DNA of 64,000 nt from an uncultured Haloferula sp. (GTDB lineage Bacteria > Verrucomicrobiota > Verrucomicrobiia > Verrucomicrobiales > Akkermansiaceae): positions 544,001-608,000 of the forward strand of contig CBFGTS010000001.1 in NCBI GenBank assembly GCA_965652295.1, read 5' to 3'. Below, piece after piece: positions 30,892 through 51,962 of the stretch. How positions within the stretch are numbered: the stretch's first letter is position 1; every line of letters begins with the position of its first letter. The notes beneath the pieces were generated by a model. That model ran no database searches. It was not told where the DNA came from and saw nothing but the letters and a program-made list of their open reading frames with translations. Both the position numbers and the translations under genes were made by a program.

Positions 30892-31458
30892 TTGGACGAA
30901 GAAGGCGATTTCACCAGGATTCTCAAAACGGCGGGTGCCAGGGGCGACCTTCCGTCGGAGGATCTGTTGCCACTGGTCTACGATGAGCTGCGCAGCGTGG
31001 CGGCGGCGAGGCTTCGGGGTGAGGCCGGCGGGCAGACGCTGCAGGCCACGGCGCTGGTGCACGAAGCCTGGCTGCGGGTGGCGGCAAAGGGCGGCCGGAG
31101 GTGGAACGACCGCGCCCACTTTTTCCGCGTCGCGGCGCTGGAGATGCGCCGCATTCTCGTCCAGAACGCCCGGCGGAAGGCATCGCTGAAACGTGGGTCC
31201 GAGTTCAAGCGGGTCGATTTCGAGGGCCTGGAACTCGCTGAAGCCGAGCCGGACGAGCGAATCCTGCTGATCGATGAGGCGCTGAAGCGGCTGGAAACGG
31301 AAGATCCCGACAGCGCGCGGATTGTGACATTGAAGTTTTTCGGAGGCCTGACGAATCAGGAGATCGCCGGTATGGACGGAGTCACGGAACGGACGATCGA
31401 ACGCAAGTGGGCCTTCGCCCGCACGCTGCTGTTCGAGGTGATCCGGGATGAAATCTGA
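30892..31458 (+). CDS. ECF sigma factor, kinase-associated PVC type
   Basis: LLPLVYDELR, QTLQATALVHEAWL, WNDRAHFF and LKFFGGLT motifs. Start placed at TTG 30892 by comparison with the paralog at 41549. Confidence 0.88.
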   Translation: MDEEGDFTRILKTAGARGDLPSEDLLPLVYDELRSVAAARLRGEAGGQTLQATALVHEAWLRVAAKGGRRWNDRAHFFRVAALEMRRILVQNARRKASLKRGSEFKRVDFEGLELAEAEPDERILLIDEALKRLETEDPDSARIVTLKFFGGLTNQEIAGMDGVTERTIERKWAFARTLLFEVIRDEI

Positions 31459-31464
31459 GACGTC

Positions 31465-33660
31465 ATGGATAGCCGGAAGTCCACCCCGCCGCTGCGAGTC
31501 CTCTTTGACTCGCTGAGCCAGTTGGAGAGCCGCGAGGAACGCGAGGCGTTCCTGGATTTCACGTGCCGCGATGACCCCGGCCTCCGAGACCGGCTGGAGC
31601 GCCTGCTCGCGCTGCGCCACGATGCGCGGGAGTTCTTCGAAATGCAACCGGCCCCGATGGCCAGCAGCGACGAGGCGGATGATCAGGACGGCGACACCCG
31701 CATCGGACGCTACCGGCTGCTGGGCCGGCTCGGCGAGGGCGGCTGCGGCGTGGTGTATCTGGCGGAACAGCAGGAGCCGGTGAAACGGCGCGTGGCGCTG
31801 AAGATCATCCGGCTCGGGATGGACACGGAGAACGTCATTGCCCGCTTCGAAATGGAGCGGCAGGCGCTGGCGATGATGGACCATCCGAATATCGCCAGGG
31901 TGCTCGATGTGGGGGCGACGACGAGCGGCCGGCCGTATTTCGTGATGCAGCTCGTGGACGGTGAGAAAATCACCGATTACTGCGATGCGAAGCGGCTCGG
32001 AATCCGGGAGCGGCTGATGTTTTTCATCCGCATCTGCCACGCCGTGCAGCACGCTCACCAGAAGGGGGTGATCCATCGCGACATCAAACCCTCCAACATC
32101 CTGGTCTGGGAACACGACGGTGAGGCGGTGCCCAAGGTGATCGACTTCGGGATCGCGAAGGCGACGAACGCGGGATTGGACGGGCGGGCGACTTTTACCT
32201 CCGACGGACAGTTCGTGGGCACCCCTGCCTACATGAGTCCGGAGCAGGCCGCGGGCACGGCGCTGGATATCGACACGCGGACGGACATCTACAGTCTTGG
32301 AGCGCTGTTGTATGAGTTGCTCTCGGGACAGCCGCCCTTTGACCCGGTGGAGCTGCGCCAGCTGGGAGCGGAAGAGATCCGCTCGATCCTGGGTGAAAGG
32401 GAGCCGGCGGCACCTTCGGTGGCGCTCGGGTTGCTTTCGGAGGACGTGCGGGCCGAGGTGGCCGCCCGGCGGGGCTGTGAAATTCAGAAACTCTCGGGTC
32501 AGATCCGCGACGATCTTGACCGGATCGTGATGAAGGCGATGGCGAAGGACCGCCAGCACCGCTACTCGGGAGCGGATGCGCTGGCTGCGGACGTGCTGTG
32601 CTTTCTCAATGACGAGCCGGTTTCCGCGCGTCCTCCGGGAGGCTTCTATCGTTTCGGGAAACTCGTCCGTCGGAACAGGGCGGCGTTTGCGGCGGGAGTG
32701 GTGGTTTTCGCCTCGCTGGTGCTGGGTCTCGGCGCGGCGACGGCGATGTACTTCCGCGCGAACCGGGCGCGGGAGGCGGCGGAGCTGGCGCGGGCGAACG
32801 AGGCCGCGCTACGGCAACAGGCGGAGATCGGGCAGAACATCGCCCGGGCGGCGGTGCTGGTGCGTTACCAGAAATTTGCGGAAGCGGACGAGTTGCTGTC
32901 GGGCATCGGGCCCGCCGACATCGAGCCCTCCTTGGAAAGCGCCGAGGTCTCCCGGGCGCTGGGCCTGTGGCATGCCCGCGAGGGTCGGTGGAAGGAGGCG
33001 GCGAACCGGTTCGCGGCGCTGGCCTTTTCGATGGCGAGCGCGGACAGCACGGACAGCGAGAACATTTCCATCGATATCCAACCCGCGGCCTCGACCCTGT
33101 GTGCGGCTGGCGACTTGGAAGGATACGAAAAGCTCCGTCGGATGGCGGTGGCGCGGTTCGGTGGAAGCTCGAATCCGATCGTCGCCGAGCAGGTGGTGAA
33201 ACCCTGCCTGTTGGTGCCGGCGGAAACAGAGGTTCTGGAGGGCCTCGCCCACCTGGAGGAGGTGATGTTGACGCATCATGAGACTCACGCTCCGGCCACT
33301 GATTTCGAGCGGAACCTGGCGTCCTGGCGCGAGTTCGCGATCGCCCTGATCGAGTACCGGAAAGGGAATTTCGAGAGAGGCTACGAATGGATCGAACAGT
33401 GTACGTGTGGAACTCACGAGAATCCGGCACGTGCTGCGATCGCGTGGGCGCTGCGGTCGATGCTCCGCCACCGTCTGGGGCACCCGGATGTCGCCCGGCA
33501 GGATCTTGCTGCGGCGCGGTTCATCGTGGCCGAGGCAATGACGGAGGACGGTGGCATTTTCGCTCACAACGAACCTGCCTGGCAGGATTGGCTGAATGCG
33601 CAGGGCATGATCCGCGAGGCGGAAGCGCTGTTGAACAGCAGCGATAGGGATCCTCCGTGA
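31465..33660 (+). CDS. Hanks-type Ser/Thr protein kinase with TM helix and helical C-terminal domain
   Basis: LGEGGCGVV, VALK, IHRDIKPSN, DFG and GTPAYMSPEQ; hydrophobic helix after RRNR. Confidence 0.93.
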   Translation: MDSRKSTPPLRVLFDSLSQLESREEREAFLDFTCRDDPGLRDRLERLLALRHDAREFFEMQPAPMASSDEADDQDGDTRIGRYRLLGRLGEGGCGVVYLAEQQEPVKRRVALKIIRLGMDTENVIARFEMERQALAMMDHPNIARVLDVGATTSGRPYFVMQLVDGEKITDYCDAKRLGIRERLMFFIRICHAVQHAHQKGVIHRDIKPSNILVWEHDGEAVPKVIDFGIAKATNAGLDGRATFTSDGQFVGTPAYMSPEQAAGTALDIDTRTDIYSLGALLYELLSGQPPFDPVELRQLGAEEIRSILGEREPAAPSVALGLLSEDVRAEVAARRGCEIQKLSGQIRDDLDRIVMKAMAKDRQHRYSGADALAADVLCFLNDEPVSARPPGGFYRFGKLVRRNRAAFAAGVVVFASLVLGLGAATAMYFRANRAREAAELARANEAALRQQAEIGQNIARAAVLVRYQKFAEADELLSGIGPADIEPSLESAEVSRALGLWHAREGRWKEAANRFAALAFSMASADSTDSENISIDIQPAASTLCAAGDLEGYEKLRRMAVARFGGSSNPIVAEQVVKPCLLVPAETEVLEGLAHLEEVMLTHHETHAPATDFERNLASWREFAIALIEYRKGNFERGYEWIEQCTCGTHENPARAAIAWALRSMLRHRLGHPDVARQDLAAARFIVAEAMTEDGGIFAHNEPAWQDWLNAQGMIREAEALLNSSDRDPP

Positions 33661-33667
33661 AATTTCC

Positions 33668-33696
33668 TGTCGGGTTTTTCCGTTCCATCGCACGTT
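33668..33696 (+). promoter_or_regulatory. Putative ECF promoter TGTCGG-N19-CGTT
   Basis: tgtcgggtttttccgttccatcgcacgtt; same spacing and GCACGT end as the site at 35572. Confidence 0.6.
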
Positions 33697-33751
33697 CTTC
33701 GAAGGTCGCGCGTGCGGCCGTCACCCTCATTCTCCATCATTTCATCGAGCT

Positions 33752-35530
33752 GTGAAGTTTCTCCGTTCTTTCTCCCTTTCGCTTCTTTTCATTCCTTCCC
33801 TCTCCCTCGCGCACGACAGCGCCTTTCACTCATGGGCCGAGCGTCCGCCGCTCGGATGGAACAGCTGGGACATTTTCGGCACGACCGTGACCGAGCGCCA
33901 GATCCGCGAGCAGGCGGGGGCGATGGCGGAGCATCTGCTGCCGTCCGGGTATGATGTCCTGACGGTGGACATCCAATGGTATGAGCCGAAGGCCAAAGGT
34001 CACGCTTACACGCCGGGCGCGACCCTGGAGATGGACGAATACGGGCGCCTGATGCCTGCGACCAACCGGTTCCCCTCCGCCTCGAAGGGCAAGGGCTTCA
34101 AGCCGCTCGCCGACTTCGTGCATTCGAAGGGACTGCGTTTCGGCATCCACATCATGCGCGGGATTCCCCGGCAAGCGGTGGAGGAAAACACTCCGGTGCT
34201 GGGAACCGACCTGCGGGCTCAGGATGTGGCATTGACCCATTCGACCTGTCCGTGGAATCCGGACATGTATGGCGTGGATGCCACGAAGCCGGAGGGGCAG
34301 GCTTACTACGATTCGATCTTCGCGCTCTACGCCTCGTGGGGCGTGGACTTCGTGAAGGTGGACGACATTTCACGTCCGTATGACGACGTCCAGAAGGCCG
34401 AGATCGAGGCGATCCGGAAAGCGATCGACAAGACCGGCCGCAAGATCGTGCTGAGTCTTTCGCCCGGCGCCACGCCGGTGAGCGCCGGACCCCACGTGAT
34501 GGAGCACGCCAACATGTGGCGGATCACCGATGATTTCTGGGATCGCTGGGGGCTGCTGCATGCGATGTTCGAGCGGGTGGATGCCTGGACGCCTTACCGC
34601 GGTCCGGGGCATTGGCCGGATGCCGACATGCTGCCCATCGGAGTGGTGGACTTCGGCCGGCCCACCCGGTTCACCAAGGACGAGCAATACACGTTGATGA
34701 GTCTGTGGAGCATCGCCCGTTCGCCGCTGATCTTTGGAGGTGACATGACGAAGCTCGATGATTTCACCAAGGAAATGCTGACCCACCCCGAGATGCTCGC
34801 GGTGAACCAGCGGAGCACCAACAACCGCCAGGTCTCGCGGGAGGACAATCTGATCGTCTGGACCGCGGATGTTCCCGACAGCGAGGACAAGTATGTGGCG
34901 CTCTTCAACGCACAGAGCAGGGGGGATCACGTGGATTTCGCCAATGCCGATTATGCCAGCCCGGTGATTGCGGGCGCCGGGCAGTCGCAGCGGGTCGAGG
35001 TTTCGGTCAAAGGTGGTAAGCGTCTTGTTCTTTTCGTCCGTGATGGCGGTGACGGGTTTGCGTTCGATCACGCGGCATGGGTGGACCCGGTGCTGCGGGG
35101 GCCGCGGGGCGAGATGAAGCTCACGGATCTGAAATGGAGCATGGCCAAGGCGGGGTGGGGTGAAACCCGTGTGGACCGGACCTGCGATGACAAGCCGCTG
35201 GAGATCGGCGGAAAGCGCGTCAACGGCATCGGCACCCACGCGGAATCGGTGGTGATCTATGATCTGCCGGAAGGATACGAGACGTTCACGGCCACCGGGG
35301 TGATGATGAAGGAAGGCTCGGTGGTCTTCGGCGTGCTCGTGGATCGGAGTGCGGAGGAGATTTCCGACACCAGTGAGGTGGCGGTGGAGTTCAAGGACAT
35401 CGGCCTCTCCGGCAAGGCGATGGTCCGCGACCTCTGGGCGCGGAAAAACCTCGGCACCTTCGACGGCCGGTTTTCACAGAAGCTGCCTCTGCACGGAGCG
35501 GGTCTTTACCGCCTGCGGCCGGTGGAGTGA
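33752..35530 (+). CDS. GH27 glycoside hydrolase with NPCBM/NEW2-like domain
   Basis: PPLGWNSWD, VDIQW, DFVKVDD, WRITDDFWD and WPDADML; GIGTHAES / DHAAWVD NPCBM-like insert; signal peptide. Confidence 0.9.
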   Translation: MKFLRSFSLSLLFIPSLSLAHDSAFHSWAERPPLGWNSWDIFGTTVTERQIREQAGAMAEHLLPSGYDVLTVDIQWYEPKAKGHAYTPGATLEMDEYGRLMPATNRFPSASKGKGFKPLADFVHSKGLRFGIHIMRGIPRQAVEENTPVLGTDLRAQDVALTHSTCPWNPDMYGVDATKPEGQAYYDSIFALYASWGVDFVKVDDISRPYDDVQKAEIEAIRKAIDKTGRKIVLSLSPGATPVSAGPHVMEHANMWRITDDFWDRWGLLHAMFERVDAWTPYRGPGHWPDADMLPIGVVDFGRPTRFTKDEQYTLMSLWSIARSPLIFGGDMTKLDDFTKEMLTHPEMLAVNQRSTNNRQVSREDNLIVWTADVPDSEDKYVALFNAQSRGDHVDFANADYASPVIAGAGQSQRVEVSVKGGKRLVLFVRDGGDGFAFDHAAWVDPVLRGPRGEMKLTDLKWSMAKAGWGETRVDRTCDDKPLEIGGKRVNGIGTHAESVVIYDLPEGYETFTATGVMMKEGSVVFGVLVDRSAEEISDTSEVAVEFKDIGLSGKAMVRDLWARKNLGTFDGRFSQKLPLHGAGLYRLRPVE

Positions 35531-35562
35531 TCCCGATGGCGATCGGAGGGCCGCTTTTTTTT
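35531..35562 (+). terminator. Possible intrinsic terminator
   Basis: Short hairpin ccgat-ggcg-atcgg followed by a run of 8 T directly after the GH27 stop. Confidence 0.45.
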
Positions 35563-35571
35563 CAGGAGCCG

Positions 35572-35600
35572 TGTCGGGTTTTGAACCGGCGCTGCACGTC
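35572..35600 (+). promoter_or_regulatory. Putative ECF promoter TGTCGG-N19-CGTC
   Basis: tgtcgggttttgaaccggcgctgcacgtc, upstream of the second GH27. Confidence 0.6.
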
Positions 35601-35680
35601 TTCCACGTGAGACCGCTTTGGTGACCCGGACCCCCGCTTCGGGGGAACTCCGCCAAAGCGGGAAACCCGTGGAACCCTAA

Positions 35681-38113
35681 GTGAAGTCTTTCTGCTGTCG
35701 ATCTGCCGCCTCTCTTCTTCTTTCCCTGTCCTGCCTCGCCGGAGCCGAGCCCGTTTTTCACGACTGGGCCGAGCGCCCGGTGATGGGCTGGAACAGCTGG
35801 GATTTCTACGGCACGACTCTCAATGAGGAACGGACGAAGGCCCAGGCCGACTACATGGCCGAAGAGCTTCTGGAGCACGGATGGAACCTCATCACGGTGG
35901 ACATCCAGTGGTATGAGCCGAACGCGAGCGGCTTCAACTACGACGCCGATGCCACGCTGGTGATGGACGAATGGGGCCGGCTCACGCCAGCCACCAACCG
36001 CTTTCCCTCGGCGTCCGGTGGAGCGGGATTCAAGCCGCTGGCCGACTATGTCCACGCCAAGGGCCTCCGGTTCGGCATCCACATGATGCGCGGCATCCCG
36101 CGTCAGGCGTGGGAGCAGGACCTGCCGGTGAAAGGCACCGCCTACACCGCCCGCGACATCGCCGATACCTCCAGCACCTGTTCCTGGAATCCGGACATGT
36201 ACGGGGTGAACATGAACCACCCGGGCGGGCAGGCCTACTATGATTCCCTGCTGGAGCTGGTCGCGTCGTGGGACGTGGACTTCGTCAAAATCGACGACCT
36301 GAGCCGCCCTTACCATCTCGCGGAGATCGAGGGCATCCGTGAGGCGATCGACAAGACCGGCCGGCCGATCGTGCTCAGCACGTCTCCCGGCGAGACCCCC
36401 GTGAGCGCCGGCCCGCACGTGATGCTCCATGCCAACCAATGGCGGATCAGCGACGACTTCTGGGACAACTGGCCGGCCCTCTACGACCAGTTCCAGCGCC
36501 TCCACGACTGGACGCCCTACCGCGGCCGCGGGCATTTCCCGGACGCCGACATGCTTCCGCTGGGCAAGATCCAGGGAGGCAGCGTGACCTCGGGTGGACG
36601 TAGTACCAACTTCACGGCCAGCGAGCAGTACACCCTGATGAGTTTGTGGGCCATCGCCCGCTCGCCGCTCATCCACGGCGGAGACATGACGCAGATGGAT
36701 TCGTTCACGCTCTCGCTGCTGACGAACGACGAGGTCATCGCGGTCAACCAGGCCAGCACGCACAACCGCCAGCTCTTCCGCAACGGCGACAAGGTGGCGT
36801 GGGTCGCCGACGTTGAGGGTTCGGCGGACAAATACCTCGGCGTCTTCAACACGGGCGGCTCCGGCACGACCGTCGCGGTGGACCTCTCCGCGCTCGGTTT
36901 CACCGGCGAGGTGGAGGTCCGGTCTCTGTGGGAAACGAGCGATCTCGGCAGCGTGACCGGCAGCTTCGAGCCCACGGTGGCGTCGCATGAGGGTCGCTTG
37001 TTCCGCCTTTCCGGGCCCGGACTGCCCACGCCGTGGCTGGCTTCCGCCACCGGGTCGGATGGGGAAGTCACTCTTGCCTGGGAGGAACTTGCGGAAGCGT
37101 CGGCATACCATCTCAAGCGCGGCCTCTCGGAAACCGGGCCCTTCGAGCTGATCGCCGCAGATCTCACGGAAACGACCTTCGCTGATACCTCGGTGACCAA
37201 CGGCACGACCTATTATTACGCCGTCTCCGCCACCGTCTCGGGTCAGGAGACACCGGACTCCGGAGCCCTGCCGGCTCTGCCCGTCGGTGAGGCGGGCATC
37301 ATCGGCTGGAACTACGACCGCTATGGTACCTTGGGCGGAGACCGGGTGGCCGGCGTGGTGCCGGCCGCGAACTGGAACAACTCGTGGCCGGACAATCCGC
37401 TCACCAACCTGAGCGATGCCTCCGGCACCGTGACCTCACTGGATATCAGCTACGCTTCCTTCAACGATTACTCGGTGAACGGCGGCGGAGGTCCGAACCC
37501 CGGTCAGGATGCGGACGGAAGCTACAACCGCGAGTTGCTCAATGGCTACCTCAACGCCGGGCCTGCGGCGTGGGGGCCGACGGTCACCCGCACCTCCGTG
37601 ACGCTCTCGGAAATCCCCCACGGTTATTACGACCTCATTGTCTATTTTTCCGCCGATGTGGCAGATCGCGAGGGTCAGGTGGGCGATGGCACCACCACCT
37701 ACTATTTCCGGACCATCGGTCCCCCGAGTGTTTCCGGGACCGACGCCGTTCTGGTGGAAACGACGCAGACCAGCCCCGACAGCTACCCGGCCGCGAACTA
37801 CGCCATCTTCACCAACCTCAGCGGAGTCTCACGGACGGTCTCCGTGCAGATGCGCGACAATGACGAGTGGGGCGGGATCGCCGGCATCCAGCTCGTGCCG
37901 AAGACCGATCCGCTGCTCAGCACCCGCCTTGAGATCGATGCTGTAGGCGGGGATCCCGCTTGGCTGTCGTGGCCCGAAGGGCTGGGCGACGTCCTGTTGG
38001 AGGAAAGCACCGATCTCGTCGAGTGGACCCCTTTCGACCCCCAGCCCGAGGCACCGCCGATGGAGATCCCCACTGATGGCGGTGCCCGGTTTTTCCGACT
38101 CACCCGCCCCTGA
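35681..38113 (+). CDS. Secreted GH27 + FN3 + shared domain A + C-terminal FFRL domain
   Basis: GH27 motifs (GWNSWD, VDIQW, FVKIDD, WRISDDFWD); FN3 (VTLAW...NGTTYYYAVSA); domain IIGWNYDRYG...QMRDNDEWGGIAGIQ; tail ESTDLVEW...ARFFRL. Confidence 0.88.
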   Translation: MKSFCCRSAASLLLSLSCLAGAEPVFHDWAERPVMGWNSWDFYGTTLNEERTKAQADYMAEELLEHGWNLITVDIQWYEPNASGFNYDADATLVMDEWGRLTPATNRFPSASGGAGFKPLADYVHAKGLRFGIHMMRGIPRQAWEQDLPVKGTAYTARDIADTSSTCSWNPDMYGVNMNHPGGQAYYDSLLELVASWDVDFVKIDDLSRPYHLAEIEGIREAIDKTGRPIVLSTSPGETPVSAGPHVMLHANQWRISDDFWDNWPALYDQFQRLHDWTPYRGRGHFPDADMLPLGKIQGGSVTSGGRSTNFTASEQYTLMSLWAIARSPLIHGGDMTQMDSFTLSLLTNDEVIAVNQASTHNRQLFRNGDKVAWVADVEGSADKYLGVFNTGGSGTTVAVDLSALGFTGEVEVRSLWETSDLGSVTGSFEPTVASHEGRLFRLSGPGLPTPWLASATGSDGEVTLAWEELAEASAYHLKRGLSETGPFELIAADLTETTFADTSVTNGTTYYYAVSATVSGQETPDSGALPALPVGEAGIIGWNYDRYGTLGGDRVAGVVPAANWNNSWPDNPLTNLSDASGTVTSLDISYASFNDYSVNGGGGPNPGQDADGSYNRELLNGYLNAGPAAWGPTVTRTSVTLSEIPHGYYDLIVYFSADVADREGQVGDGTTTYYFRTIGPPSVSGTDAVLVETTQTSPDSYPAANYAIFTNLSGVSRTVSVQMRDNDEWGGIAGIQLVPKTDPLLSTRLEIDAVGGDPAWLSWPEGLGDVLLEESTDLVEWTPFDPQPEAPPMEIPTDGGARFFRLTRP

Positions 38114-38143: not shown

Positions 38144-38887
38144 ATGAAACCCCCGATGAAAACCCTGCTTCCCTGCCTTGTGCTGGGAGCCGTGACCACC
38201 GCGTCCGCCGCCACCGTTAGCTGGAACTACGACCGTTTCGGTACCGTGAGCGGCGCCCGCGTCGCCGGCGTCGAGCCGGTGGCGAACTGGAACAATACGT
38301 GGCCCGACGACCCGCTTACCGACCTGATCGATGACTCGGGATCCGCCACCACGATCGACATCAGCTACAGCTCCTTCAACACCTACTCGGTGAACGGAAA
38401 CACCGGGCCCAACCCCGGGCAGGACGCCGATGGCACCTACAACCGGGAGTTGGTCAACGGCTACCTCAATGCCGGCCCGGCGGGCTGGAATCCACCCACC
38501 ACCGAAAGCTCGGTGGGCATCAGCCAGATCCCGTATGCCAGCTACAACATCATCGTCTATTTCTCCGCCGACGTGGCGGGTCGCGAGGGCGATGTGACCG
38601 ATGGGAGCACGGTCTTCTCGTTCAACACCGTGGGCCCCGCCAGCGTGAGCGGCAGCAATGCGGTGCTCGCCCAGACGACCGACACCGGCGGCACCTACAC
38701 CACCGCGGCGAACTACGCCATTTTCACGGGCCTCAGCGGAGCCTCGCAGACGCTCACCGTGCAAATGCGCGATAACGACGAATGGGGTGGCATCGCCGGC
38801 TTTCAGGTCGTGCAGGTGCCCGAGCCGTCCTCCATCGCATTCGGAGTCTTCGGTGTCGCGCTCCTCCTGCGCCGTCGCCGCATCTGA
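38144..38887 (+). CDS. PEP-CTERM protein consisting only of shared domain A
   Basis: Signal peptide, VSWNYDRFG...QMRDNDEWGGIAGFQ, then VPEPSSIAFGVFGVALLLRRRRI. Confidence 0.92.
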   Translation: MKPPMKTLLPCLVLGAVTTASAATVSWNYDRFGTVSGARVAGVEPVANWNNTWPDDPLTDLIDDSGSATTIDISYSSFNTYSVNGNTGPNPGQDADGTYNRELVNGYLNAGPAGWNPPTTESSVGISQIPYASYNIIVYFSADVAGREGDVTDGSTVFSFNTVGPASVSGSNAVLAQTTDTGGTYTTAANYAIFTGLSGASQTLTVQMRDNDEWGGIAGFQVVQVPEPSSIAFGVFGVALLLRRRRI

Positions 38888-38899: not shown

Positions 38900-38933
38900 G
38901 ATCCGCGGTGCCCGGCTTGAGGCACCGCGGATC
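38900..38933 (+). terminator. Strong stem-loop after the PEP-CTERM gene
   Basis: GATCCGCGGTGCC-N8-GGCACCGCGGATC, perfect 13-bp stem followed by ttcctttt. Confidence 0.65.
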
Positions 38934-41453: not shown

Positions 41454-41480
41454 TGTCGGCTTTCCGGGCGGGATCTCGTT
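41454..41480 (+). promoter_or_regulatory. Putative autoregulatory ECF promoter TGTCGG-N17-CGTT
   Basis: tgtcggctttccgggcgggatctcgtt upstream of the second sigma; closely resembles 44364-44390. Confidence 0.55.
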
Positions 41481-44363: not shown

Positions 44364-44390
44364 TGTCGGGATTTCCGGCGGCTTCTCGTT
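44364..44390 (+). promoter_or_regulatory. Putative ECF promoter TGTCGG-N17-CGTT
   Basis: tgtcgggatttccggcggcttctcgtt between kinase 2 and its cargo genes. Confidence 0.6.
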
Positions 44391-44462: not shown

Positions 44463-45230
44463 ATGAAAAAGAATCCTACCTACCTATTGTTGCCCCTGGC
44501 GTTGAGCCTCGTCGGCACCTCCCAAGCCAGTTTCGTCCTGATTGACGACTTTGAAAGCTACGCCGACGGCGTGAATGGCACCACCACGACCCCGGCTTGG
44601 AATCAAGGATTTCCCGCCGGAGGATCCAATAGCGCTACCACCGTGGTGGGTGCTGATACCGGCAGCGGCCAAGCCCTTCACTACGCCCATGGTGGCAGTG
44701 GCGGGCAGATCAATTACTCCTCCGTGGGAACGATCGCGGCGGAAGGCTCCACCGGGACCATCTTCTTCCAATCCTACCTGGATGCCACCGGTTCCGACAC
44801 GCTGTTCGCATTCGGGCGATCGGGGCTGGGCGCCTACGGAGATCTGGCGACGCTTGTGCGGGTGCCAAGCGACCTCATTGTCGAGGTGCACAACGGAGGA
44901 TACGCCAATACCTCGACCACGATCGCGGCGGACACGCTCTATAACTTCTGGGTGGTGATCGACAATTCAGCCAACACCTCCTCGCTGTATTATTCGGCGG
45001 GCGGCCCCGGTGAAACCCCCACCCTGATTCAATCCGGGTTCGTCTTCCGGAACACCACCTCCGGGGACATCAATACCTTTTATCTGGGTACCAACTCGGG
45101 ATCAGTAGGTTTCCTCGACAACATCTACGTCGATTCCACCGGCGCGAATCTCACGAACCCGGTCCCCGAGCCTTCCATCGCCCTGCTCGGTGGTCTCGGC
45201 GTGCTTGGATTGATCCGTCGGCGTCGCTGA
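44463..45230 (+). CDS. PEP-CTERM protein consisting only of shared domain B
   Basis: Start moved to ATG 44463 (MKKNPTYLLLP signal); FVLIDDFESY...FLDNIYVD...NLTNP, then VPEPSIALLGGLGVLGLIRRRR. Confidence 0.92.
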   Translation: MKKNPTYLLLPLALSLVGTSQASFVLIDDFESYADGVNGTTTTPAWNQGFPAGGSNSATTVVGADTGSGQALHYAHGGSGGQINYSSVGTIAAEGSTGTIFFQSYLDATGSDTLFAFGRSGLGAYGDLATLVRVPSDLIVEVHNGGYANTSTTIAADTLYNFWVVIDNSANTSSLYYSAGGPGETPTLIQSGFVFRNTTSGDINTFYLGTNSGSVGFLDNIYVDSTGANLTNPVPEPSIALLGGLGVLGLIRRRR

Positions 45231-45253: not shown

Positions 45254-45278
45254 GGGGCACGCGCGTGGCGCGTGCCCC
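45254..45278 (+). terminator. Strong stem-loop after the PEP-CTERM gene
   Basis: GGGGCACGCGC-GTG-GCGCGTGCCCC, perfect 11-bp stem. Confidence 0.6.
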
Positions 45279-45309
45279 CTTGTATTCCTCAACTCTTCCA
45301 TACGCTGGG

Positions 45310-47796
45310 ATGAAACACTCAGATACCCAAATCCGTGCCCTTCTCGCTCCTCTGGCGCTGGGTCTCATTGGTGCCGCTCAAGCGCAGTTCACCTTGGTCG
45401 ATGACTTCGAAAGCTACACCGCTGGAGTCAACGGCAACACGACGACGCCGCCGTGGGTCCAAGGCTTTCCTGCGGGCGGCGCGAACGCGACCACGACGGT
45501 CATCGGACCCGATGATGCCGCCGGCCAGGCGCTTCGTTATACCCACGCAGGCAGTGGAGGACAGATCAACTACTCCAACGTCGGAACCATCGCCGCCGAG
45601 GGAGCGGTCGGTACGATTTTCTTCCAAGCCTACCTCGACGCCACCGGTTCCGACACCCTGTTCGCTTTCGGCCGTTCCGGACTCGCGGCCTACGGAGATC
45701 TCGCGGTGCTTTTCCGGGTTCCCAGCGATCTGATTGTCGAGGTTCACAACGGTGCCTATGCCAATACGGCAACCACCTTGGCGGCCGACACCCTCTACAA
45801 CTTCTGGGTGGTCATCGACAACGCGGCGAATACAGCGACGCTCTATTATTCGGCGGGAAATTCCCAGGCAACGCCGATCTCCATCCAGGCGGGCTTTGCG
45901 TTCCGCAATGCAACGGCGGGAGACATCTCCACTTTCTACTTGGGAACAAATGGGGGTTCTACCGGCTTCATCGATAATATCTACATCGATGCAACCGGCT
46001 CCAACCTCGCGAATCCGGCTTTCACCGATACGGATGGAGACGGCCTGGATGATGCCTGGGAACTCACCTATGGCCTGGATCCTGACGATGACGGCACCAC
46101 CGGGGAGAGTTCACCGGGTGCCAAGGACGGTCCGAATGGCGCTTTGGGCGACCCGGATGAGGACGAGCTGTCCAACCTCGGCGAGTATCAGGCAGGAACG
46201 GATCCCCAAGAGCCGGACACGGATGGGGACACGCTCACCGATGGCGAGGAAATCGCCGGCACTTTGAACGCGTTTGCCTCGGGAACCCCGACCGATCCCT
46301 TGCTGGCGGACAGCGATGGCGACGGCGCGAACGATTTCGAGGAAAACGGCTCGCTGAACACGGCTTTTTCCAACGAGCCGACCGATCCGAACGTCGCGGA
46401 CACTGATGGCGACGGCATGGACGATGCCTACGAGCTGCTTTGCAATACTTCCGGTTCGGCGCTCGATCCGAACGACGATGGCAGTGGTGACCCGACACAG
46501 GCTCCCACCGGAGACCGGGACGGAGATGAACTGACCAATTTGGAGGAGTACCAGGCGTTTCCGCAAACCCGGGCCGATCTCGCTGATACCGACGACGATG
46601 GCCTGAGCGACAAGGTCGAGGATTCATTTGGTTCGTGGGGCGATGTGGAAGCGACCGGCACCGATCCCACGAACCCCGACACCGATGGCGATGGCCTACT
46701 CGACGGGGAGGAGAACTTTGATCTGAGCACGTTTAACGGCGGTCCCGGTTTCCCCGGGCAGGGCGTGACGCCCACCAACTCCGACCCGAACCTGGCGGAC
46801 ACGGACTTCGACGGGTTTTTCGATGGCTACGAGGTGGAGCAGGGAACCGATCCCGACGACGCGGCGGATTTTCCCACCCAACCCGAAGGCTTCCAGCTGG
46901 TGGAGGACTTCGAAGGGACGGGCATGGTCATTGGCCAGACGTTCAATGGCGTGAACGGTTGGGTGGCCCAAATTTCGGATGCCGCGGTGGTGGAGGATGA
47001 GCCGATCGCCGGCGGCGATCAGATCGGCTCCTTCGTCCGGCCCACGGGGCAGGCTCCGTCGTCACTCTATCGCTCGATCGCGAACCTGGGATATCAGGTG
47101 CTCGAGGGCAACACGGGCACGTTGTTCATGCAGCTTTACGTCCCGATCGGCGGCGTGGACAACAGCTTCGGATTCTCCGACGTGTCCGCTCCGGGCTTCG
47201 ACTTCGGGGCATATGAAGCGCAGCTCGTCATGGCGGGTGCGGCGAATGAACTCCGGGTGCGCGATGCCGGAGCCTTCCGGGTGCGAGGCACCCATCGGGT
47301 GGGCGAGTGGATGAATGTCTGGATCGTGGCGGACAACGGCACGGATACCCTCAGGGTCTTCGTGCAGAGCCCGGCGGCGCAGTCCGGTCAGGTGGAGATC
47401 ACGGACGATTTTGGCACGGATGCATACAACTTCCGAAACGGCACGCTGGAGGCGCTCTCCACTTTGTATTTCGCCCACAATGGCGGGACCGAGCTGCCGG
47501 TGCTCTTCGACAACGTCTATGTCGATCCCGGTGCCTCCAACCTCACCACACCCGCGGCGGCCAAACCCGTTCTGGTCACGGGAGCCCCGACGATCACCGA
47601 TGTGTTTTTCGAGAGCGGCGATCTGAAGATCCGGTTCACGCCCGGCGGAACCGGCTTCACGCTCACCTCCTCGAACGATCTGGTCTCGCCCTTCGTCGAG
47701 GAAACCAACGCGACGTACGACGGGATCGACACCTTCACGGTGCCGGCGTCGGCACTGGCTCCGGAGAGGGATTTCTTCCGGGTGGAGGAGCCCTGA
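45310..47796 (+). CDS. Secreted protein: domain B + Ca-binding DxDxDG (TSP3-like) repeats + divergent domain B + C-terminal FFRV domain
   Basis: Start ATG 45310; near-copy of domain B; many DTDGDG...TDP repeats; second LVEDFEG...FDNVYVD unit; tail SSNDL...RDFFRV. Confidence 0.85.
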   Translation: MKHSDTQIRALLAPLALGLIGAAQAQFTLVDDFESYTAGVNGNTTTPPWVQGFPAGGANATTTVIGPDDAAGQALRYTHAGSGGQINYSNVGTIAAEGAVGTIFFQAYLDATGSDTLFAFGRSGLAAYGDLAVLFRVPSDLIVEVHNGAYANTATTLAADTLYNFWVVIDNAANTATLYYSAGNSQATPISIQAGFAFRNATAGDISTFYLGTNGGSTGFIDNIYIDATGSNLANPAFTDTDGDGLDDAWELTYGLDPDDDGTTGESSPGAKDGPNGALGDPDEDELSNLGEYQAGTDPQEPDTDGDTLTDGEEIAGTLNAFASGTPTDPLLADSDGDGANDFEENGSLNTAFSNEPTDPNVADTDGDGMDDAYELLCNTSGSALDPNDDGSGDPTQAPTGDRDGDELTNLEEYQAFPQTRADLADTDDDGLSDKVEDSFGSWGDVEATGTDPTNPDTDGDGLLDGEENFDLSTFNGGPGFPGQGVTPTNSDPNLADTDFDGFFDGYEVEQGTDPDDAADFPTQPEGFQLVEDFEGTGMVIGQTFNGVNGWVAQISDAAVVEDEPIAGGDQIGSFVRPTGQAPSSLYRSIANLGYQVLEGNTGTLFMQLYVPIGGVDNSFGFSDVSAPGFDFGAYEAQLVMAGAANELRVRDAGAFRVRGTHRVGEWMNVWIVADNGTDTLRVFVQSPAAQSGQVEITDDFGTDAYNFRNGTLEALSTLYFAHNGGTELPVLFDNVYVDPGASNLTTPAAAKPVLVTGAPTITDVFFESGDLKIRFTPGGTGFTLTSSNDLVSPFVEETNATYDGIDTFTVPASALAPERDFFRVEEP

Positions 47797-47816
47797 TCCC
47801 GGGGTAAGGTCTCTGC

Positions 47817-50800
47817 GTGAAACGAAACCAAGCTTCTTCGCGACTTGCGGCCCCGGTCATCCTCGGATGGCTGGGGTTCGGCTCGTGGGCCGTGGCGGAC
47901 TGGAGCCTGATTGAGGATTTCGAGGGGTTCTCACCGGGTGACAGCGGTGGTTTCAGCCAGATTTTCGGCGATCCGGACATCATTTCCGTGGTTTCGGATC
48001 CCTTGGTCGATGGTCTCGGTCTCGGCGTCACGGGAGGCGGCGGCGGCGGTCGGCTGAGCGGAAGCGACGCTCCCTGGGTGATCGCTCCCGAGGGAGGGAA
48101 GGGGACGCTCTTTTTCCAAGCCGCGGCCGTCGCCACGGGCAGCGATCTGCTGTTCGCATTCGGGCGTAGCGGGGTGACGCAGTATTCCTCGCTTTCGGTG
48201 CTCTTCCGCCTGCCCGCGGACCTGATCCTCGAGGTCCACGACGGAGGATACGTCAATACCGGGACCTCGGTCGAACTGAACACGGTTCACAATTTCTGGG
48301 TGGTCATCGACAACGACACCAACCGTTGGGATTTGTACACTTCAACCGGCGCGGATGCTCCTCAGTTGGTTCAAGATGACATCAGCTTCCGCAGCACGGT
48401 TTCCGGAAACATCGACACGATCTACCTCGGGACGAACTCGGGCTCGATCTATGCGATCGACAACATCTACGCCGACTCGGGTAGCGAGAACCTCGGCTTT
48501 CCGCCGATCTCCGCTCTTCAGCCGGTGGCGGAGACCGATGCGGTCGAGGTTGGCGTGGGCGGGGCGATCCGCTTCGATCCGCTGGCGAACGACACGGGCA
48601 GCCTCGACCCCGCTTCTCTGGAAATCATTGCCGCTCCGACGCACGGCACGGCCACGGTTTCGGACGGTCGGATGGTCTATCGGCACGATGGCGGCGTGGC
48701 GGCGACGGACAGCTTCAGCTACCGCGTCGGCAACCTGCCCGGAACGGCCCACGCCGAGGCTGTGGTGGCGGTCTCGATCCATGACGCGATGCGTCTCGCG
48801 AACTCGACGCTCCAGGTCCCGGCCGAGCCGCCCTCCGCGGCCACGGGCACCATGGTGATCGAGGATGCCCTTCCGGGGCTGACCTTTCCCGAGGCGATCG
48901 CCATGACGACCATCCCCGGCAGCCCTGAATCGCTGCTAGTGGCCAGCACCCGCGGCGACATCTGGTATGTACCGGACTCCACCGCTGCCAATCCGACGCG
49001 CCATCTGGTGCTCAATCTCGATTCCCTGACGAATGAAACCCGCGGGCGCAGCATCTATTCACTGGAGTGCTTTCCGGATTTCGCGACCACCGGCCACATC
49101 GTGGTGACCTATCAGGGCGACGCCACCCGGCTACCGCAGCCGACTTCGTCGATCCCGAACCTGGACAAGGATGGCGAGCCCTATTCGACGATCACCTGCG
49201 ACCTGCGGATCTCCCGTTTCACGCTTTCGCCCGCCCATCTCGAGGGGGCGATGGATGGGTTGAGCAGTGGGGAAAACGCGGATGTTCTCGCGACCGAATG
49301 GCCGTATTTGAATCTCGCGGAGCAGGATTTTTTTCACTCGATCAACGACGCCAAATTCGGGCCGGACGGCTACCTCTACGTCAGCTTTGGCGACGAGGGC
49401 GATCAGGGTGCGCCGTACCGGAACACGCAGACCATCACCAAGGACCAGTACAGCTCGGTGATCCGCATCGACGTGGATCCTGCATCGACGAATCCGAAAC
49501 CGAATCCGCACTACGCCATCGCCGTCGGTCCCTTGAATGGCAGTCACAGTCCGAACACGCCGTTCACCGATGCGGCGGTGCAGGAACCCAACTTCCGCGT
49601 GCCGGCGGACAACCCTTTCGTCACCCCGGCCAGGGGCGGAAGCTGGGACGGGTTTTTCAACGGGATCGACCACTCGGCGGTGCTCGATCAGGTCCGCGAT
49701 GAGATTTGGGCGGTGGGCTTGCGGAACCCGTTCAAAATCCACATCGACCAGGAAGAGGGCAGCGGGGAGACCGAGGTGTGGGTTGGCGATGTCGGCAAGA
49801 ACGACCGCGAGGAATTCACCGTGCTGAAGAAAGGCGGCAATGGCGGCTGGGCCTTCTACGAGGGCGAAATCCTCACGCCGGACCTGAACTACACGCCGCC
49901 CGAGCCGGCCGGCTCGAATCCCCATGCGCCGCCGGTTTTCGCCTACCCGCACACCAGCGGCAACAACTCCGCCACCGGCGGCATCGTTTACCACGGCACC
50001 CGGCTCGCTTCGCTGACCGGCCGCTACCTCGCCGGCGACTTCGGCTCCGGCCGCATATGGAGCATCAGCCGCGATGGCTCGTCGGTGGTCGAACTCACCG
50101 GGCTGCGCCAAAGTTCGAATCGCATCGTCGATTTCCATCCCGACCCGATCACAGGGGATATCTTCGTGTTGGAAAACAACACCTGGTCCGGCGGCGCGCT
50201 GCCGCGGGTCTTGCGGATCACCTTGCAGGAGGTGGCGCAGGAGGACTATCCGCAGACGCTCTCCGAGCTGGGCATCTTCGCCGACCTCGCCGACTTCAGC
50301 CCCAATCCCGGGGTGGTGCCCTACGAGGTGAACCTCCGTTTTTGGTCGGACGGCGCGGACAAGTCGCGCTGGTTTTCGATCCCGGACCTCGGCGATACCA
50401 TGGGCTACTCGCGTGATGGCAACTGGAGTTTTCCCGAGGGCATGGTGTGGGTGAAGCACTTCGATTTCGACCTCGACCGGTCGCAGCCGGGCAGCCAGGT
50501 GAAGCGCTTGGAAACGCGGGTGCTCGTCCGCAATGCCGGGGGGGCGTATGGCGTTTCCTACCGCTGGAATGAGGAGGGAACGGGCGCGACGCTGGTGCCC
50601 AATGAGGGGCAGGGATTTCCGATCGACTACACCGAGGCCGATGGATCTCCGGCAAGTCTCACCTGGCAGATCCCGGCGCGGGCCGAATGCATGACCTGCC
50701 ACACCGAGTCCGGCGGTCACGCGCTCAGCATGAACACGCGGCAGTTCAATCGCCCCGCCGCCCTTGCGGGACGCGAGGGCAACCTGCTCGGGCTTCTCTC

Positions 50801-51962
50801 CGATGCCGGCTACCTCGCCGGATTCGCCGACGATCCCGCGACGCTGGAAAAGCACCACCGCCCGGATGAGACGGACATCGATATCGAGGCGCGGGTGCGC
50901 TCCTACCTTGATGTCAATTGCGCCTACTGCCACCAGGCCGGCGGCAGCGCGCCGCCTTCGTGGAATGGCCGGGCGCATCTTTCGCTCGCCCAGACCGGGC
51001 TGCTCTACGGCGCGTTGCTCAGTGAGGGGAGCCCCTCGCTTTCCGATCATCTGATCCGGCCGGGAGATAAGAACCACTCGGCGCTGTGGAACAAAATCAA
51101 CGCCCGCGGTGCGATCAACGGCACCTATAACGGCTACACGCAAATGCCGCCGCTTGGCTCAAACGTTCTCGACGAAGAGGCGATCGCCCTGATCGCCGAG
51201 TGGATCGATCATCACGCGAACGTGGCGCCCGTGCCTGCCAGTGGCAGCCTTGCCGCGGCGGAAGTATCGGAAAACGAACTGGTGGGATACCTGCTTGGAA
51301 CTGCCTCCGCCGCCGATCCCGACGTGCGCGATGGCGTGGCGGATCAATCACAGCTCCGCTACCGGATCGCCGGTGGAAACGAAGCCGGGCTGTTCGGGAT
51401 CGATGAGTCCACCGGCGAACTCGAGGTCAACGGCATTCTCGACTATGAACGGCAAACTCAGTATTTGCTGACCCTCGAGGTGGACGATGGCTTCGAACCG
51501 AACCCGGGCGTAACGCAACACACGGTGGTCATCGATCTGATCGACGAGACCGCACCCGATGCCACTGCGGATGCGAATGGCAACGGCACCTTCGACGTCT
51601 GGGAGCAAACCTTCGGTCTCGGCCTGGACGCTGCGGCCGATACCGACGGCGACGGAGTCCGGGATTTCTTCGAGTTTCTCAGCGGCGGGGATCCGCAAGT
51701 GGCGGACCAGCCGGCCACGTTGGCCCTCTCCCACCGAACCGGTGCCGATGGACAGCGCCTTGCCTGGAACGTCCGCAACGGTCTTGCGCTGGACGAGCAC
51801 TACCAGGTGCAGCTCACCGACGGGCTCGACGTATGGACGCCGCTCGGTGCGGGCCAGTATGAGATTCTCTCCGTCACTCCGGTTTCCGCCGGCGTCTCCC
51901 GGGTTGAGATCCGCGTCCCGGCCTCCGGGCCGCGGCAGTTCCTGCGGCTCTCGGCACCTTGA
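47817..51962 (+). CDS. Secreted multidomain protein: domain B + Ig-like + glucose/sorbosone dehydrogenase-type propeller + two CxxCH + cadherin-like + C-terminal domain
   Basis: FGPDGYLYVSFGDEG, PADNPF, EIWAVGLRNP and GDVG; FWSDGADKSRW; CMTCH and CAYCH; LDYE cadherin motif; tail RQFLRL. Confidence 0.85.
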   Translation: MKRNQASSRLAAPVILGWLGFGSWAVADWSLIEDFEGFSPGDSGGFSQIFGDPDIISVVSDPLVDGLGLGVTGGGGGGRLSGSDAPWVIAPEGGKGTLFFQAAAVATGSDLLFAFGRSGVTQYSSLSVLFRLPADLILEVHDGGYVNTGTSVELNTVHNFWVVIDNDTNRWDLYTSTGADAPQLVQDDISFRSTVSGNIDTIYLGTNSGSIYAIDNIYADSGSENLGFPPISALQPVAETDAVEVGVGGAIRFDPLANDTGSLDPASLEIIAAPTHGTATVSDGRMVYRHDGGVAATDSFSYRVGNLPGTAHAEAVVAVSIHDAMRLANSTLQVPAEPPSAATGTMVIEDALPGLTFPEAIAMTTIPGSPESLLVASTRGDIWYVPDSTAANPTRHLVLNLDSLTNETRGRSIYSLECFPDFATTGHIVVTYQGDATRLPQPTSSIPNLDKDGEPYSTITCDLRISRFTLSPAHLEGAMDGLSSGENADVLATEWPYLNLAEQDFFHSINDAKFGPDGYLYVSFGDEGDQGAPYRNTQTITKDQYSSVIRIDVDPASTNPKPNPHYAIAVGPLNGSHSPNTPFTDAAVQEPNFRVPADNPFVTPARGGSWDGFFNGIDHSAVLDQVRDEIWAVGLRNPFKIHIDQEEGSGETEVWVGDVGKNDREEFTVLKKGGNGGWAFYEGEILTPDLNYTPPEPAGSNPHAPPVFAYPHTSGNNSATGGIVYHGTRLASLTGRYLAGDFGSGRIWSISRDGSSVVELTGLRQSSNRIVDFHPDPITGDIFVLENNTWSGGALPRVLRITLQEVAQEDYPQTLSELGIFADLADFSPNPGVVPYEVNLRFWSDGADKSRWFSIPDLGDTMGYSRDGNWSFPEGMVWVKHFDFDLDRSQPGSQVKRLETRVLVRNAGGAYGVSYRWNEEGTGATLVPNEGQGFPIDYTEADGSPASLTWQIPARAECMTCHTESGGHALSMNTRQFNRPAALAGREGNLLGLLSDAGYLAGFADDPATLEKHHRPDETDIDIEARVRSYLDVNCAYCHQAGGSAPPSWNGRAHLSLAQTGLLYGALLSEGSPSLSDHLIRPGDKNHSALWNKINARGAINGTYNGYTQMPPLGSNVLDEEAIALIAEWIDHHANVAPVPASGSLAAAEVSENELVGYLLGTASAADPDVRDGVADQSQLRYRIAGGNEAGLFGIDESTGELEVNGILDYERQTQYLLTLEVDDGFEPNPGVTQHTVVIDLIDETAPDATADANGNGTFDVWEQTFGLGLDAAADTDGDGVRDFFEFLSGGDPQVADQPATLALSHRTGADGQRLAWNVRNGLALDEHYQVQLTDGLDVWTPLGAGQYEILSVTPVSAGVSRVEIRVPASGPRQFLRLSAP

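Follow-up and report, generated by a model that had tools for sequence, protein, structure and literature searches.

Two sigma factor-kinase cassettes of an uncultured Haloferula sp. each encode one predicted carbohydrate-binding-type module with two different C-terminal tails

Gene content of the two cassettes

The cassettes described here are located at positions 30,892 to 51,962 of a 64,000-nucleotide stretch of contig CBFGTS010000001.1 (the window; GenBank assembly GCA_965652295.1) from an uncultured Haloferula sp., and all features discussed are on the + strand. The first cassette opens with ECF1 (30892..31458, start codon uncertain), a TIGR02999/PF07638 sigma factor with the motif QATA in region 2.2 that scored 186 bits against a cut-off of 126 in the family-model scan, followed by the gene for Ser/Thr kinase 1 (31465..33660), which has one hydrophobic helix at about residues 407-427. 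An ECF-type promoter-like site (TGTCGGG...CGT, 33668..33696) lies 5' of the first cargo gene, encoding an alpha-galactosidase-like protein (GH27-NPCBM, 33752..35530), and is followed at 35572..35599 by a second promoter-like site that is preceded by a hairpin and a T-run. Next is GH27-A-CTD (35681..38113), in which the domain designated A (37292-37903) is internal and not 5'; its GH27 paralogue has NPCBM in the place of domain A. The cassette is completed by A-PEP (38144..38887), consisting of a signal-like N-terminus, domain A (38207-38812) and a PEP-CTERM tail, by a 13-bp hairpin 3' of that gene (38900..38933), and by A-Ig-Ig-Y-CTD (38966..41356), a protein with domain A at 39020-39628 and an unnamed domain Y at 40193-40939, for which the family scan gave no catalytic family.

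The second cassette has a promoter-like site (41454..41479) 5' of ECF2 (41549..42145), a TIGR02999 sigma factor with QPTA and 58% identity to ECF1, followed by Ser/Thr kinase 2 (42123..44318), which is 50% identical to kinase 1 and also has one hydrophobic helix. A further site (TGTCGGG-N16-CGT, 44364..44389) is 5' of B-PEP (44463..45230; signal-like N-terminus, domain B at 44529-45161, PEP-CTERM), and an 11-bp hairpin (45254..45278) is 3' of it. Two larger genes follow: B-TSP (45310..47796), with domain B (45385-46017), seven DxDxDG calcium-type repeats, a distant copy B' (46882-47553) and the CTD, and B-GSDH (47817..51962), with domain B (47898-48503), Big_9, a glucose/sorbosone dehydrogenase-like propeller, two CxxCH motifs, cadherin and the CTD, also described as B-Big9-GSDH-cytochrome c-cadherin-CTD. 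No substrate link between domain B and the dehydrogenase was evident.

An earlier note on this DNA had proposed that both cassettes run in the order sigma factor, kinase, promoter motif and cargo, and this gene order was confirmed. Its description of one gene that is only signal, domain and PEP-CTERM beside larger proteins with a copy of that domain and a different C-terminal domain also held, except for GH27-NPCBM (33752-35530), which lacks domain A as well as the CTD. As the note had further stated, A and B show no evident similarity (hhalign probability 1%), and since their best-matching folds also differ, distant homology between them was ruled out.

Predicted folds and homologues of domains A and B

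Copies of domain A are 64-77% identical among themselves, and the predicted model (pLDDT 92) matched the galactose-binding-like domain of YxiM (Z 10.2, rmsd 3.0, 130 aligned), as well as a C-terminal module of beta-glucuronidase (Z 9.7), FERONIA (Z 9.2) and many CBMs, so that a galactose-binding/malectin-like fold is predicted; the best Z score is only moderate. No match was found for domain A to a Pfam CBM family or to the sequences of solved structures. Domain B copies are 45-75% identical, and the model (pLDDT 90) matched a domain of BT_1020 (Z 19.3, rmsd 2.8, 174 aligned) and the lectin domains of sialidases and galactocerebrosidase, which predicts a ConA-like lectin fold. Both models are thus beta-sandwiches of the CBM/lectin kind, and A and B appear to be unrelated carbohydrate-module folds for which glycan binding is predicted. 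A shared fold does not by itself reveal function, and jelly rolls bind proteins too.

The partners of these domains include carbohydrate-active enzymes. An A profile matched 5387 cluster representatives at E<=0.001, and the enzyme families found beside A in its homologues were GH27 and GH128. Among the 120 longer homologues listed, about half were fusions of A with GH27, A was often present in tandem copies, and 101 proteins terminated in the CTD, others having dockerin-like or PEP-CTERM tails; among the 120 short homologues listed, 95 scored as PEP-CTERM and the tail was visible by eye in most others. Domain B recurred in five longer proteins with 66-73% identity, and in three of these it is accompanied by GH16 or GH128 domains. 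More distant A-family proteins were different: in 48 scanned among 150 listed, an enzyme family was found in four and a glycoside hydrolase in one (GH28), most having just Ig, cadherin, PKD or TSP3 stalks, or nothing, and the stalk-only proteins fit a role as adhesins equally well. Based on the logic that a predicted carbohydrate-binding-type domain is shared by the anchored and the fused proteins of a cassette, all of them likely bind the same polysaccharide.

An alternative, which we consider improbable, is a self-recognition code in which PEP-CTERM copies make up an abundant coat, and cargo and cross-linkers dock onto it like-with-like, with an orthogonal domain at each locus. The folds, which are of carbohydrate-module types, speak against it, as does the single-domain PEP-CTERM protein, which is unlike a scaffoldin.

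C-terminal tails and export

The PEP-CTERM tails of the two cassettes, each with the PEP motif, a hydrophobic helix and a cluster of basic residues, scored 21.0 and 21.9 bits against PF07589 (cut-off 20.7) and 11.3 and 13 bits against TIGR02595, below its cut-off of 16. The genome contains one exosortase match (PF09721, 167 bits), and cleavage and surface attachment of the cassette PEP-CTERM proteins are predicted from sequence. The second tail, the CTD, is an unnamed C-terminal domain of ~80 aa with the motif S-x-D-L...W...F-x-R, present in 98 proteins of the genome and in 69 of 151 sampled genomes of the phylum. No convincing match to a named family was found in NCBIfam, Pfam or PDB sequences, none of 36 CTDs matched the T9SS models of NCBIfam and Pfam, and the Atlas matches were to unnamed Verrucomicrobiota clusters only. 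A search of the genome for SprA gave no match, but neither did the controls; four secretins are encoded. Judged by its position and abundance, the CTD is likely an export signal, and it may be that of the phylum. Gene calls, the PEP-CTERM set (74 genes) and the CTD set were from home-made models; the CTD profile overlooks some tails, and two PEP-CTERM genes found earlier are missing from the 74. In the open literature searched by title or abstract, no description of the CTD or of the in-operon pairing was found.

It is conceivable, though very unlikely, that the PEP-CTERM copy is instead a periplasmic secretion helper that serves its CTD partner as a pilot or as a template for folding. The partners are in one operon, and PMC12188702 leaves open where PEP-CTERM proteins finally reside, both of which would suit such a role, but a matched PEP-CTERM partner is lacking for most of the 98 CTD proteins (13 PEP-CTERM genes are matched), and orthologous cargo is kept where such a partner is absent.

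Recurrence of matched pairs

In the genome studied (G000), 25 PEP-CTERM domains had any match among CTD proteins, and for 13 of the 74 PEP-CTERM genes the best match was in a CTD protein no more than 6 kb away. With a mean of only 0.77 of the 98 CTD genes within 6 kb of a PEP-CTERM gene, local matching occurs more than by chance. The design, which the earlier note saw as occurring twice, is indeed in both cassettes but is no two-off, as there are 13 such loci in the genome. Nor are the domains private, as had been suggested, given the 5387 cluster representatives matched by the A profile and the distant copies of B inside B-TSP (B') and elsewhere in the genome.

The design also recurs with other domain families and in other genomes. 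In relatives labelled Luteolibacter/Haloferula/Verrucomicrobiaceae, cassette 1 was complete in one and partial in four; the ECF-kinase pair was not upstream in three of five related domain A loci. In Pontiellaceae, domain B is present at about 70% identity next to GH16/GH128 domains, and the two loci examined (14 and 18 kb of DNA) had no matched PEP-CTERM copy, which speaks against an anchored scaffold as an obligate element. A metagenome scan for close relatives of B confirmed none of 594 candidate stretches. Matched cargo without a matched PEP-CTERM neighbor was found at four loci, in G032, G220, G292 and G000 (C8), which is difficult to reconcile with self-recognition. The two cargo N-domains are 54% identical in G032 (best other genome match, 36%), 55% in G292, where an unrelated domain is on the same body, and 61% at C8.

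These patterns bear on another explanation, module shuffling, in which the 5' end of a neighbor (signal peptide and first domain) is copied, with occasional gene conversion, and the match is historical, joint action being unnecessary. Supporting it were that matched copies are mostly N-terminal, that the same body bears unrelated N-domains in different genomes, and that many PEP-CTERM genes lack a match even though they adjoin CTD genes (25 are adjacent, and 13 are matched within 6 kb). The A copy of GH27-A-CTD, being internal, does not fit, and we regard shuffling as improbable.

Evolution of the matched domains

N-terminal B copies clustered by locus (support 99/99 in G000, 100/100 in G169, 95/94 in G220 and 85/72 in G032), whereas the B' copies inside seven orthologous proteins formed one clade (96/97). 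Since the N-terminal copy follows the locus but the internal copy follows the gene, the matching is real, and the domain-matched two-tail design proposed in the earlier note stands. The B pair of G169 showed the same, being 62-65% identical within the locus and ~30% identical to that of G000, on bodies 51% identical. Both observations favor self-recognition. B-PEP and B-TSP are 77% identical while their four-fold sites are saturated (29 of 87), which ruled out recent duplication as the sole cause and argues against shuffling; such identity exceeds what a shared ligand usually requires and so also counts against a common glycan.

Domain A gave a more mixed picture. Thirteen columns are common to all three G000 A copies and occur in none of nine copies from three relatives, as self-recognition would have it, but A copies clustered chiefly by gene role, which it would not. 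Moreover, PEP-CTERM and GH27 copies were 66.4% identical on the same presumed contig versus 64.3% between contigs, with the own partner best in just 3 of 16, and for GH and Ig copies in 3 of 11, where pairs were presumed same-contig partners because their contigs are equally long, and kin are not independent. These figures, which also count against self-recognition, would indicate weak residue-level co-evolution, and tight co-evolution was set aside. Between A-PEP and A-Ig, 54 of 86 four-fold sites are the same where ~41% would be expected (orthologues 41-48%), an excess that indicates conversion or re-duplication and so favors shuffling; against this, the order of the A trio and its role-specific residues are kept in several genomes with synonymous sites near saturation.

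Sigma factor-kinase pairs, promoter-like sites and hairpins

All 11 TIGR02999 sigma factor-kinase loci of the genome adjoin PEP-CTERM and CTD genes, with a domain in common in seven, and a CTD gene was present at 33 of 40 such loci sampled in eight other genomes. The kinase gene is at +1 of the sigma gene, and its product has one transmembrane helix (hydropathy window only); for the extracytoplasmic TPR repeats of ECF43-type kinases, a sequence-family scan gave no TPR family match at E<=0.01. An obligatory ECF-kinase pair was rejected, as 6 of the 13 matched loci are not near a TIGR02999-type kinase and three of five related A loci have no pair upstream. The TGTCGG pattern was found 3' of 15 of 43 kinase genes, compared with 201 of 3319 genes (enrichment p=2e-8).

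Hairpins behind matched PEP-CTERM genes had a median of -29 kcal/mol, compared with -24 for 61 other PEP-CTERM genes and -18 for 300 random genes, and PEP-CTERM genes of relatives have hairpins similar to the 13-bp one of A-PEP on their 3' side. This suggests that the PEP-CTERM protein is in excess, as expected of a self-recognizing coat; the recurrence of promoter sites and hairpins is less readily explained by shuffling.

A model for the cassettes

The anchored protein as a scaffold or lattice, which the earlier note preferred, is not supported so far, given the carbohydrate-module folds, the matched cargo without a PEP-CTERM neighbor and the frequent absence of the ECF-kinase pair; its alternative, a common glycan for all copies, fits better. 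On balance, and with slightly more belief than disbelief, we favor the view that the cassettes are PUL-like regulons from which the same glycan-binding module is exported along two routes, so that a surface binder, likely cross-linkers and enzymes are aimed at the same polysaccharide. By analogy with EcfK/EcfP, an outside cue sensed by the kinase would lead to phosphorylation of the Thr of QxTA, activating the sigma factor, which would then read the cargo from the enriched TGTCGG-N16/17-CG sites. The hairpin 3' of the PEP-CTERM gene may cause the small anchored binder to exceed its downstream partner. The PEP-CTERM copy would be processed by exosortase and the CTD proteins would leave the cell differently, perhaps through a secretin system. 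The anchored binder could then keep the glycan at the cell while non-catalytic X-stalk-X' proteins cross-link it and the GH27 or dehydrogenase/cytochrome is targeted to it, co-localization presumably being bridged by glycan and not by protein-protein contact. The observed matching may have arisen as N-terminal modules were copied inside a locus, and been kept while the ligand was shared.

A like-with-like reading can be extended to the PVC group as a locus-specific address label, in which each cassette would provide a swappable lectin-fold domain X as an abundant PEP-CTERM coat onto which enzymes and bivalent cross-linkers, exported by an undescribed Verrucomicrobial C-terminal signal, dock. 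We think this unlikely to be correct; if it were, each cell would have about a dozen surface complexes, orthogonal to one another and inducible through kinases, as an equivalent of the cellulosome that has neither cohesin nor dockerin, and self-recognition as such would be a new way of building surface enzyme complexes.

To our knowledge, the breakdown of complex polysaccharides by Verrucomicrobiota does not involve the SusC/D loci from which research on Bacteroidota takes its bearings, and for most PEP-CTERM proteins a function is yet to be assigned. The favored shared-glycan model would offer a rule, namely that a domain-sharing neighbor and its fused enzyme indicate what a PEP-CTERM protein is likely to bind. 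The analysis also yields two unnamed CBM-fold families (A with >5000 cluster representatives) and candidate sigma-kinase regulons whose promoter can be tested.

Comparison with known systems

Bacteroidota PULs combine surface glycan-binding proteins with CBM-bearing enzymes. In the cassettes, too, a single locus brings together a dedicated regulator, a non-catalytic binder at the surface and enzymes that carry carbohydrate modules; the cassettes differ in anchoring by PEP-CTERM instead of lipidation and in the near-identical module of binder and enzyme, and no SusC/SusD or TonB-dependent receptor was among the cassette genes scanned. In cellulosomes, cohesin and dockerin join an anchored non-catalytic protein and tagged enzymes, which the cassettes would resemble if the docking reading held. 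However, the same domain is on both sides in the cassettes, the anchored protein has one copy where a scaffoldin has several, and the family scan found no cohesin or dockerin family. The C-terminal domain of type IX secretion is a terminal domain of 70-90 residues on many large exported proteins; the cassette CTD has a different motif, and none of the 36 CTDs compared matched a T9SS model.

ECF43 pairs (EcfK-PknS, EcfP) have, according to PMC7826278 and PMC13147305, a Sigma70_ECF factor with QxTA and a +1 kinase with one membrane helix, and EcfK-PknS drives type VI secretion. The cassettes share Sigma70_ECF (PF07638, and TIGR02999 over cut-off), QATA/QPTA and the +1 single-helix kinase, whereas the 11 paralogous pairs here adjoin genes for exported multidomain proteins. 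Given that the 2021 classification (PMC7826278) defines ECF43 as proteobacterial, the pairs resemble ECF43 in working yet are not classed as ECF43.

A precedent in layout is that of choice-of-anchor domains (CAA/PF20597 and kin), one domain family with different C-terminal sorting tails according to bioRxiv 10.1101/2023.03.06.531300; homologous pairs with and without PEP-CTERM are noted by Haft 2006 (PMC1569441). The named choice-of-anchor models of NCBIfam and Pfam did not match the cassette domains. Domain A is similarly found with PEP-CTERM, CTD and dockerin-like tails. The cassettes differ in that a single operon holds the alternative tails next to each other, that matching is specific to the locus, that a conserved body can take different domains and that the second tail is a Verrucomicrobial domain with no name. 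The layout is a variant of the choice-of-anchor theme.

Gene content of the cassettes

Gene calls and a domain scan of the window bore out the ORFs, gene order and domain content described in the earlier note. Cassette 1 runs sigma factor, kinase, GH27-NPCBM, GH27-A-CTD, A-PEP-CTERM and A-Ig-Ig-Y-CTD (A-Ig), and cassette 2 runs sigma factor, kinase, B-PEP-CTERM, B-calcium repeats-B'-CTD (B-TSP) and B-Big9-dehydrogenase-cytochrome-cadherin-CTD, where A and B are the shared modules, B' is a distant internal copy of B, and CTD and Y are unnamed domains. The first GH27 protein of cassette 1 has neither domain A nor the CTD. Copies in the window are 64-77% identical for A and 45-75% for B, and a comparison of the two profiles found them unrelated, as the earlier note had supposed. 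Homologues are labeled Luteolibacter, Haloferula or Verrucomicrobiaceae, which puts the organism in the order Verrucomicrobiales.

Elsewhere in the window are a hybrid PKS-NRPS gene (1433-12160; 3575 aa, with class III aminotransferase and thioesterase), exopolysaccharide-type genes (12246-19237: beta-barrel porin, Wzz/tyrosine-kinase-like protein, sugar transferase and flippase), which lie ~12 kb from the cassettes and are a possible source of their ligand, and genes for a DUF1549/DUF1553 cytochrome, a PPC protein, DUF1501, a sulfatase and a TPR protein (19227-29073). A PEP-CTERM gene (29896-30669, minus strand) is divergent from ECF1, and no matched partner for it was found in the genome. 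Type I restriction-modification genes occupy 53057-61973, with an EcoAI-type R subunit above cut-off and several ORFs without assignment between them. A third sigma-kinase cassette begins on the minus strand at the window end (window 62073-64000; G000:C1:606073-622407, G000 being the genome under study) and contains CTD proteins, a PEP gene with a weak match (32%) to both neighbors, and a flavin-dependent halogenase/monooxygenase-like gene, which a flavoprotein gene inside a cassette on contig C4 resembles.

Spread of the design

Home-made gene calls on the 4.37-Mb genome gave 74 PEP-CTERM genes. For 25 of these a CTD gene is no more than 600 bases away, against a background of 4.7% among other genes. 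In 25 cases the domain of the PEP protein matches some CTD protein in the genome, and in 13 of them the best match is no farther than 6 kb away (25-81% identity); the design that the earlier note had seen twice is thus real but not limited to two instances. One matched pair is split between contigs (PEP-CTERM domain at G000:C9:111938-112879, 70% identical to the CTD protein at C1:7655-12625). Close to each of the 11 TIGR02999 sigma factors above cut-off lie a kinase gene, a PEP gene and a CTD gene, and seven of these loci contain a matched pair. Kinase proximity enriches matching but is not required for it (7/15 PEP genes near kinases matched versus 6/59 elsewhere, p=0.003).

Of 301 genomes from the order, 52 had a match to domain A and 19 to domain B. 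The predicted recurrence behind ECF-kinase pairs holds, with cassette 1 entire in one relative (G302), but the coupling is loose: the trio GH27-A, A-PEP and A-Ig is complete without an upstream sigma-kinase pair in G156, G214 and G032. G226 has the sigma factor, kinase, the other GH27, A-PEP and A-Ig, and distant A pairs were found in G256, G208, G280 and G239. Among 40 TIGR02999 loci from eight other genomes, a selection of those identified in relatives, a kinase was present at 38, a CTD gene at 33, a PEP gene at 11 and a matched pair at six; the constant companion of the regulator is therefore CTD cargo, the matched PEP protein being optional. Domain A is 71% identical between a PEP-CTERM protein of Phycisphaeraceae and a LamG protein whose tail is dockerin-like (P0268 and P0080), presumably on a common contig, so the design probably reaches into Planctomycetota, where the second tail is of another kind.

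The C-terminal domain

The CTD (~80 residues, pattern S-x-D-L...W...F-x-R) is terminal on 98 proteins of the genome and occurs in the window at 37847-38110, 41090-41353, 47572-47793 and 51714-51959. No convincing match was found in NCBIfam, Pfam or PDB sequences; Atlas matches were unnamed Verrucomicrobiota clusters only, and profile matches occurred in 69 of 151 sampled genomes of the phylum. Found at the end of ~100 large signal-bearing proteins, the domain is a candidate sorting or export signal, analogous to the T9SS tail. The CTD is perhaps the most useful by-product of the finding.

Predicted folds and ligands

Neither A nor B reaches any Pfam family in a profile search, and both are predicted to have carbohydrate-module folds. 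The model of A (pLDDT 92) is nearest to galactose-binding-like and malectin-like modules (Z 10.2, 9.7 and 9.2), with which weak Atlas leads agree. That of B (pLDDT 90), a predicted ConA-like sandwich, is nearest to a domain of BT_1020 (Z 19.3) and also resembles lectin domains of sialidases and galactocerebrosidase. The A family comprises 5387 cluster representatives at E<=0.001, unnamed and frequently in tandem. Close relatives are mainly GH27 or Ig fusions, and because only 4 of 48 distant A proteins scanned carry an enzyme family, no ligand can be named for A. Home-made profiles assigned the tails of 142 distant A proteins as CTD (37), PEP-CTERM (22) or dockerin-like (3), with 80 outside the profiles' classes. 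In two Pontiellaceae proteins (L138:8117-11326 and L139:6674-11374), domain B is 69-70% identical and stands beside GH16 or GH128, hinting at a beta-1,3-glucan ligand.

Domain Y (window 40193-40939) is internal in A-Ig, but two neighboring genes at G000:C8:32631-40767 both have it at the N-terminus (61% identical).

Matching of modules within loci

In a tree of B copies, the B' copies of seven orthologous proteins, which served as an internal control, form one clade (support 96/97). The N-terminal B copies instead cluster by locus in G000, G169 and G220, and with weaker support in G032; locus grouping was not seen for the G208 pair. The PEP and partner copies of G169 are 62-65% identical to each other and ~30% to those of G000. 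B-PEP and B-TSP are 77% identical, with four-fold sites at chance level (33%). From the tree and this identity at saturated sites, we infer that the N-terminal module was swapped across the whole locus and then retained. Module shuffling is a doubtful account of the matching. The A copies cluster chiefly by gene role, with an excess identity within a contig of only ~2 points; the three of G000 have 13 diagnostic columns in common and raised synonymous identity (52-63%), which points to gene conversion.

Several results speak against the earlier note's anchored scaffold or lattice, as cargo is matched without a matched PEP neighbor in four loci. In G032, two cargo orthologues have a common N-domain (54%), and searching the genome turned up no PEP protein with a close copy of it. 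Both bodies are also present in G220, where no PEP gene lies closer than 6 kb. A body of the same type in G292 bears an unrelated N-domain that matches the next CTD gene (55%) and not the adjacent PEP gene, and the C8 locus of G000 repeats this with domain Y. No matched PEP copy of B was found in the DNA fetched for the two Pontiellaceae loci. That cargo domains match irrespective of any anchor also makes self-recognition, in which matched domains make like-with-like contacts, unlikely. As its sequence is kept across classes without a partner, and cargo matches with or without an anchor, such a module behaves like a ligand-specific carbohydrate module. A role as secretion helper is very improbable.

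Regulation and proposed mechanism

Both sigma factors have a Sigma70_ECF domain and a QATA or QPTA motif, and both kinases a single hydrophobic helix. The site TGTC[GC]G-N15-18-C[GA][TCA] is enriched after kinase genes (6/13 in G000 and 9/30 in relatives, versus 201/3319 genes). Strong hairpins follow both cassette PEP genes. Of six related PEP genes examined, five are followed by a strong hairpin and one by a weak hairpin; such hairpins would raise the abundance of the small PEP protein over its downstream partner. Profile searches of the genome identified one exosortase and four secretins.

We somewhat favor a PUL-like regulon whose products all meet on one glycan. The kinase would activate the sigma factor by phosphorylation, and the activated factor would use the promoter-like sites. 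An abundant binder, processed by exosortase, would lie at the surface, while non-catalytic two-headed cross-linkers and enzymes would be exported via the CTD, all converging on a single glycan.

Comparison with known systems

In openly available papers, searched at title and abstract level, we found no description of in-operon, locus-matched, swappable pairing or of the CTD. Already known are choice-of-anchor domains (bioRxiv 2023.03.06.531300), homologues with and without PEP-CTERM (PMC1569441), PEP-CTERM proteins joining cells to polysaccharide (PMC12188702) and sigma-kinase pairs (PMC13147305; PMC7826278). In its predicted architecture, B-TSP is like the thrombospondin C-terminus, with calcium repeats and then a ConA-like domain (Z 13.5). 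The cassette pairs resemble ECF43-type pairs, in which the kinase is described as phosphorylating the Thr of the motif (PMC13147305; PMC7826278 supplement). The likeness lies in the Sigma70_ECF domain, the Thr motif and the one-helix kinase, although ECF43 is defined as a proteobacterial group and the pairs here are not proteobacterial.
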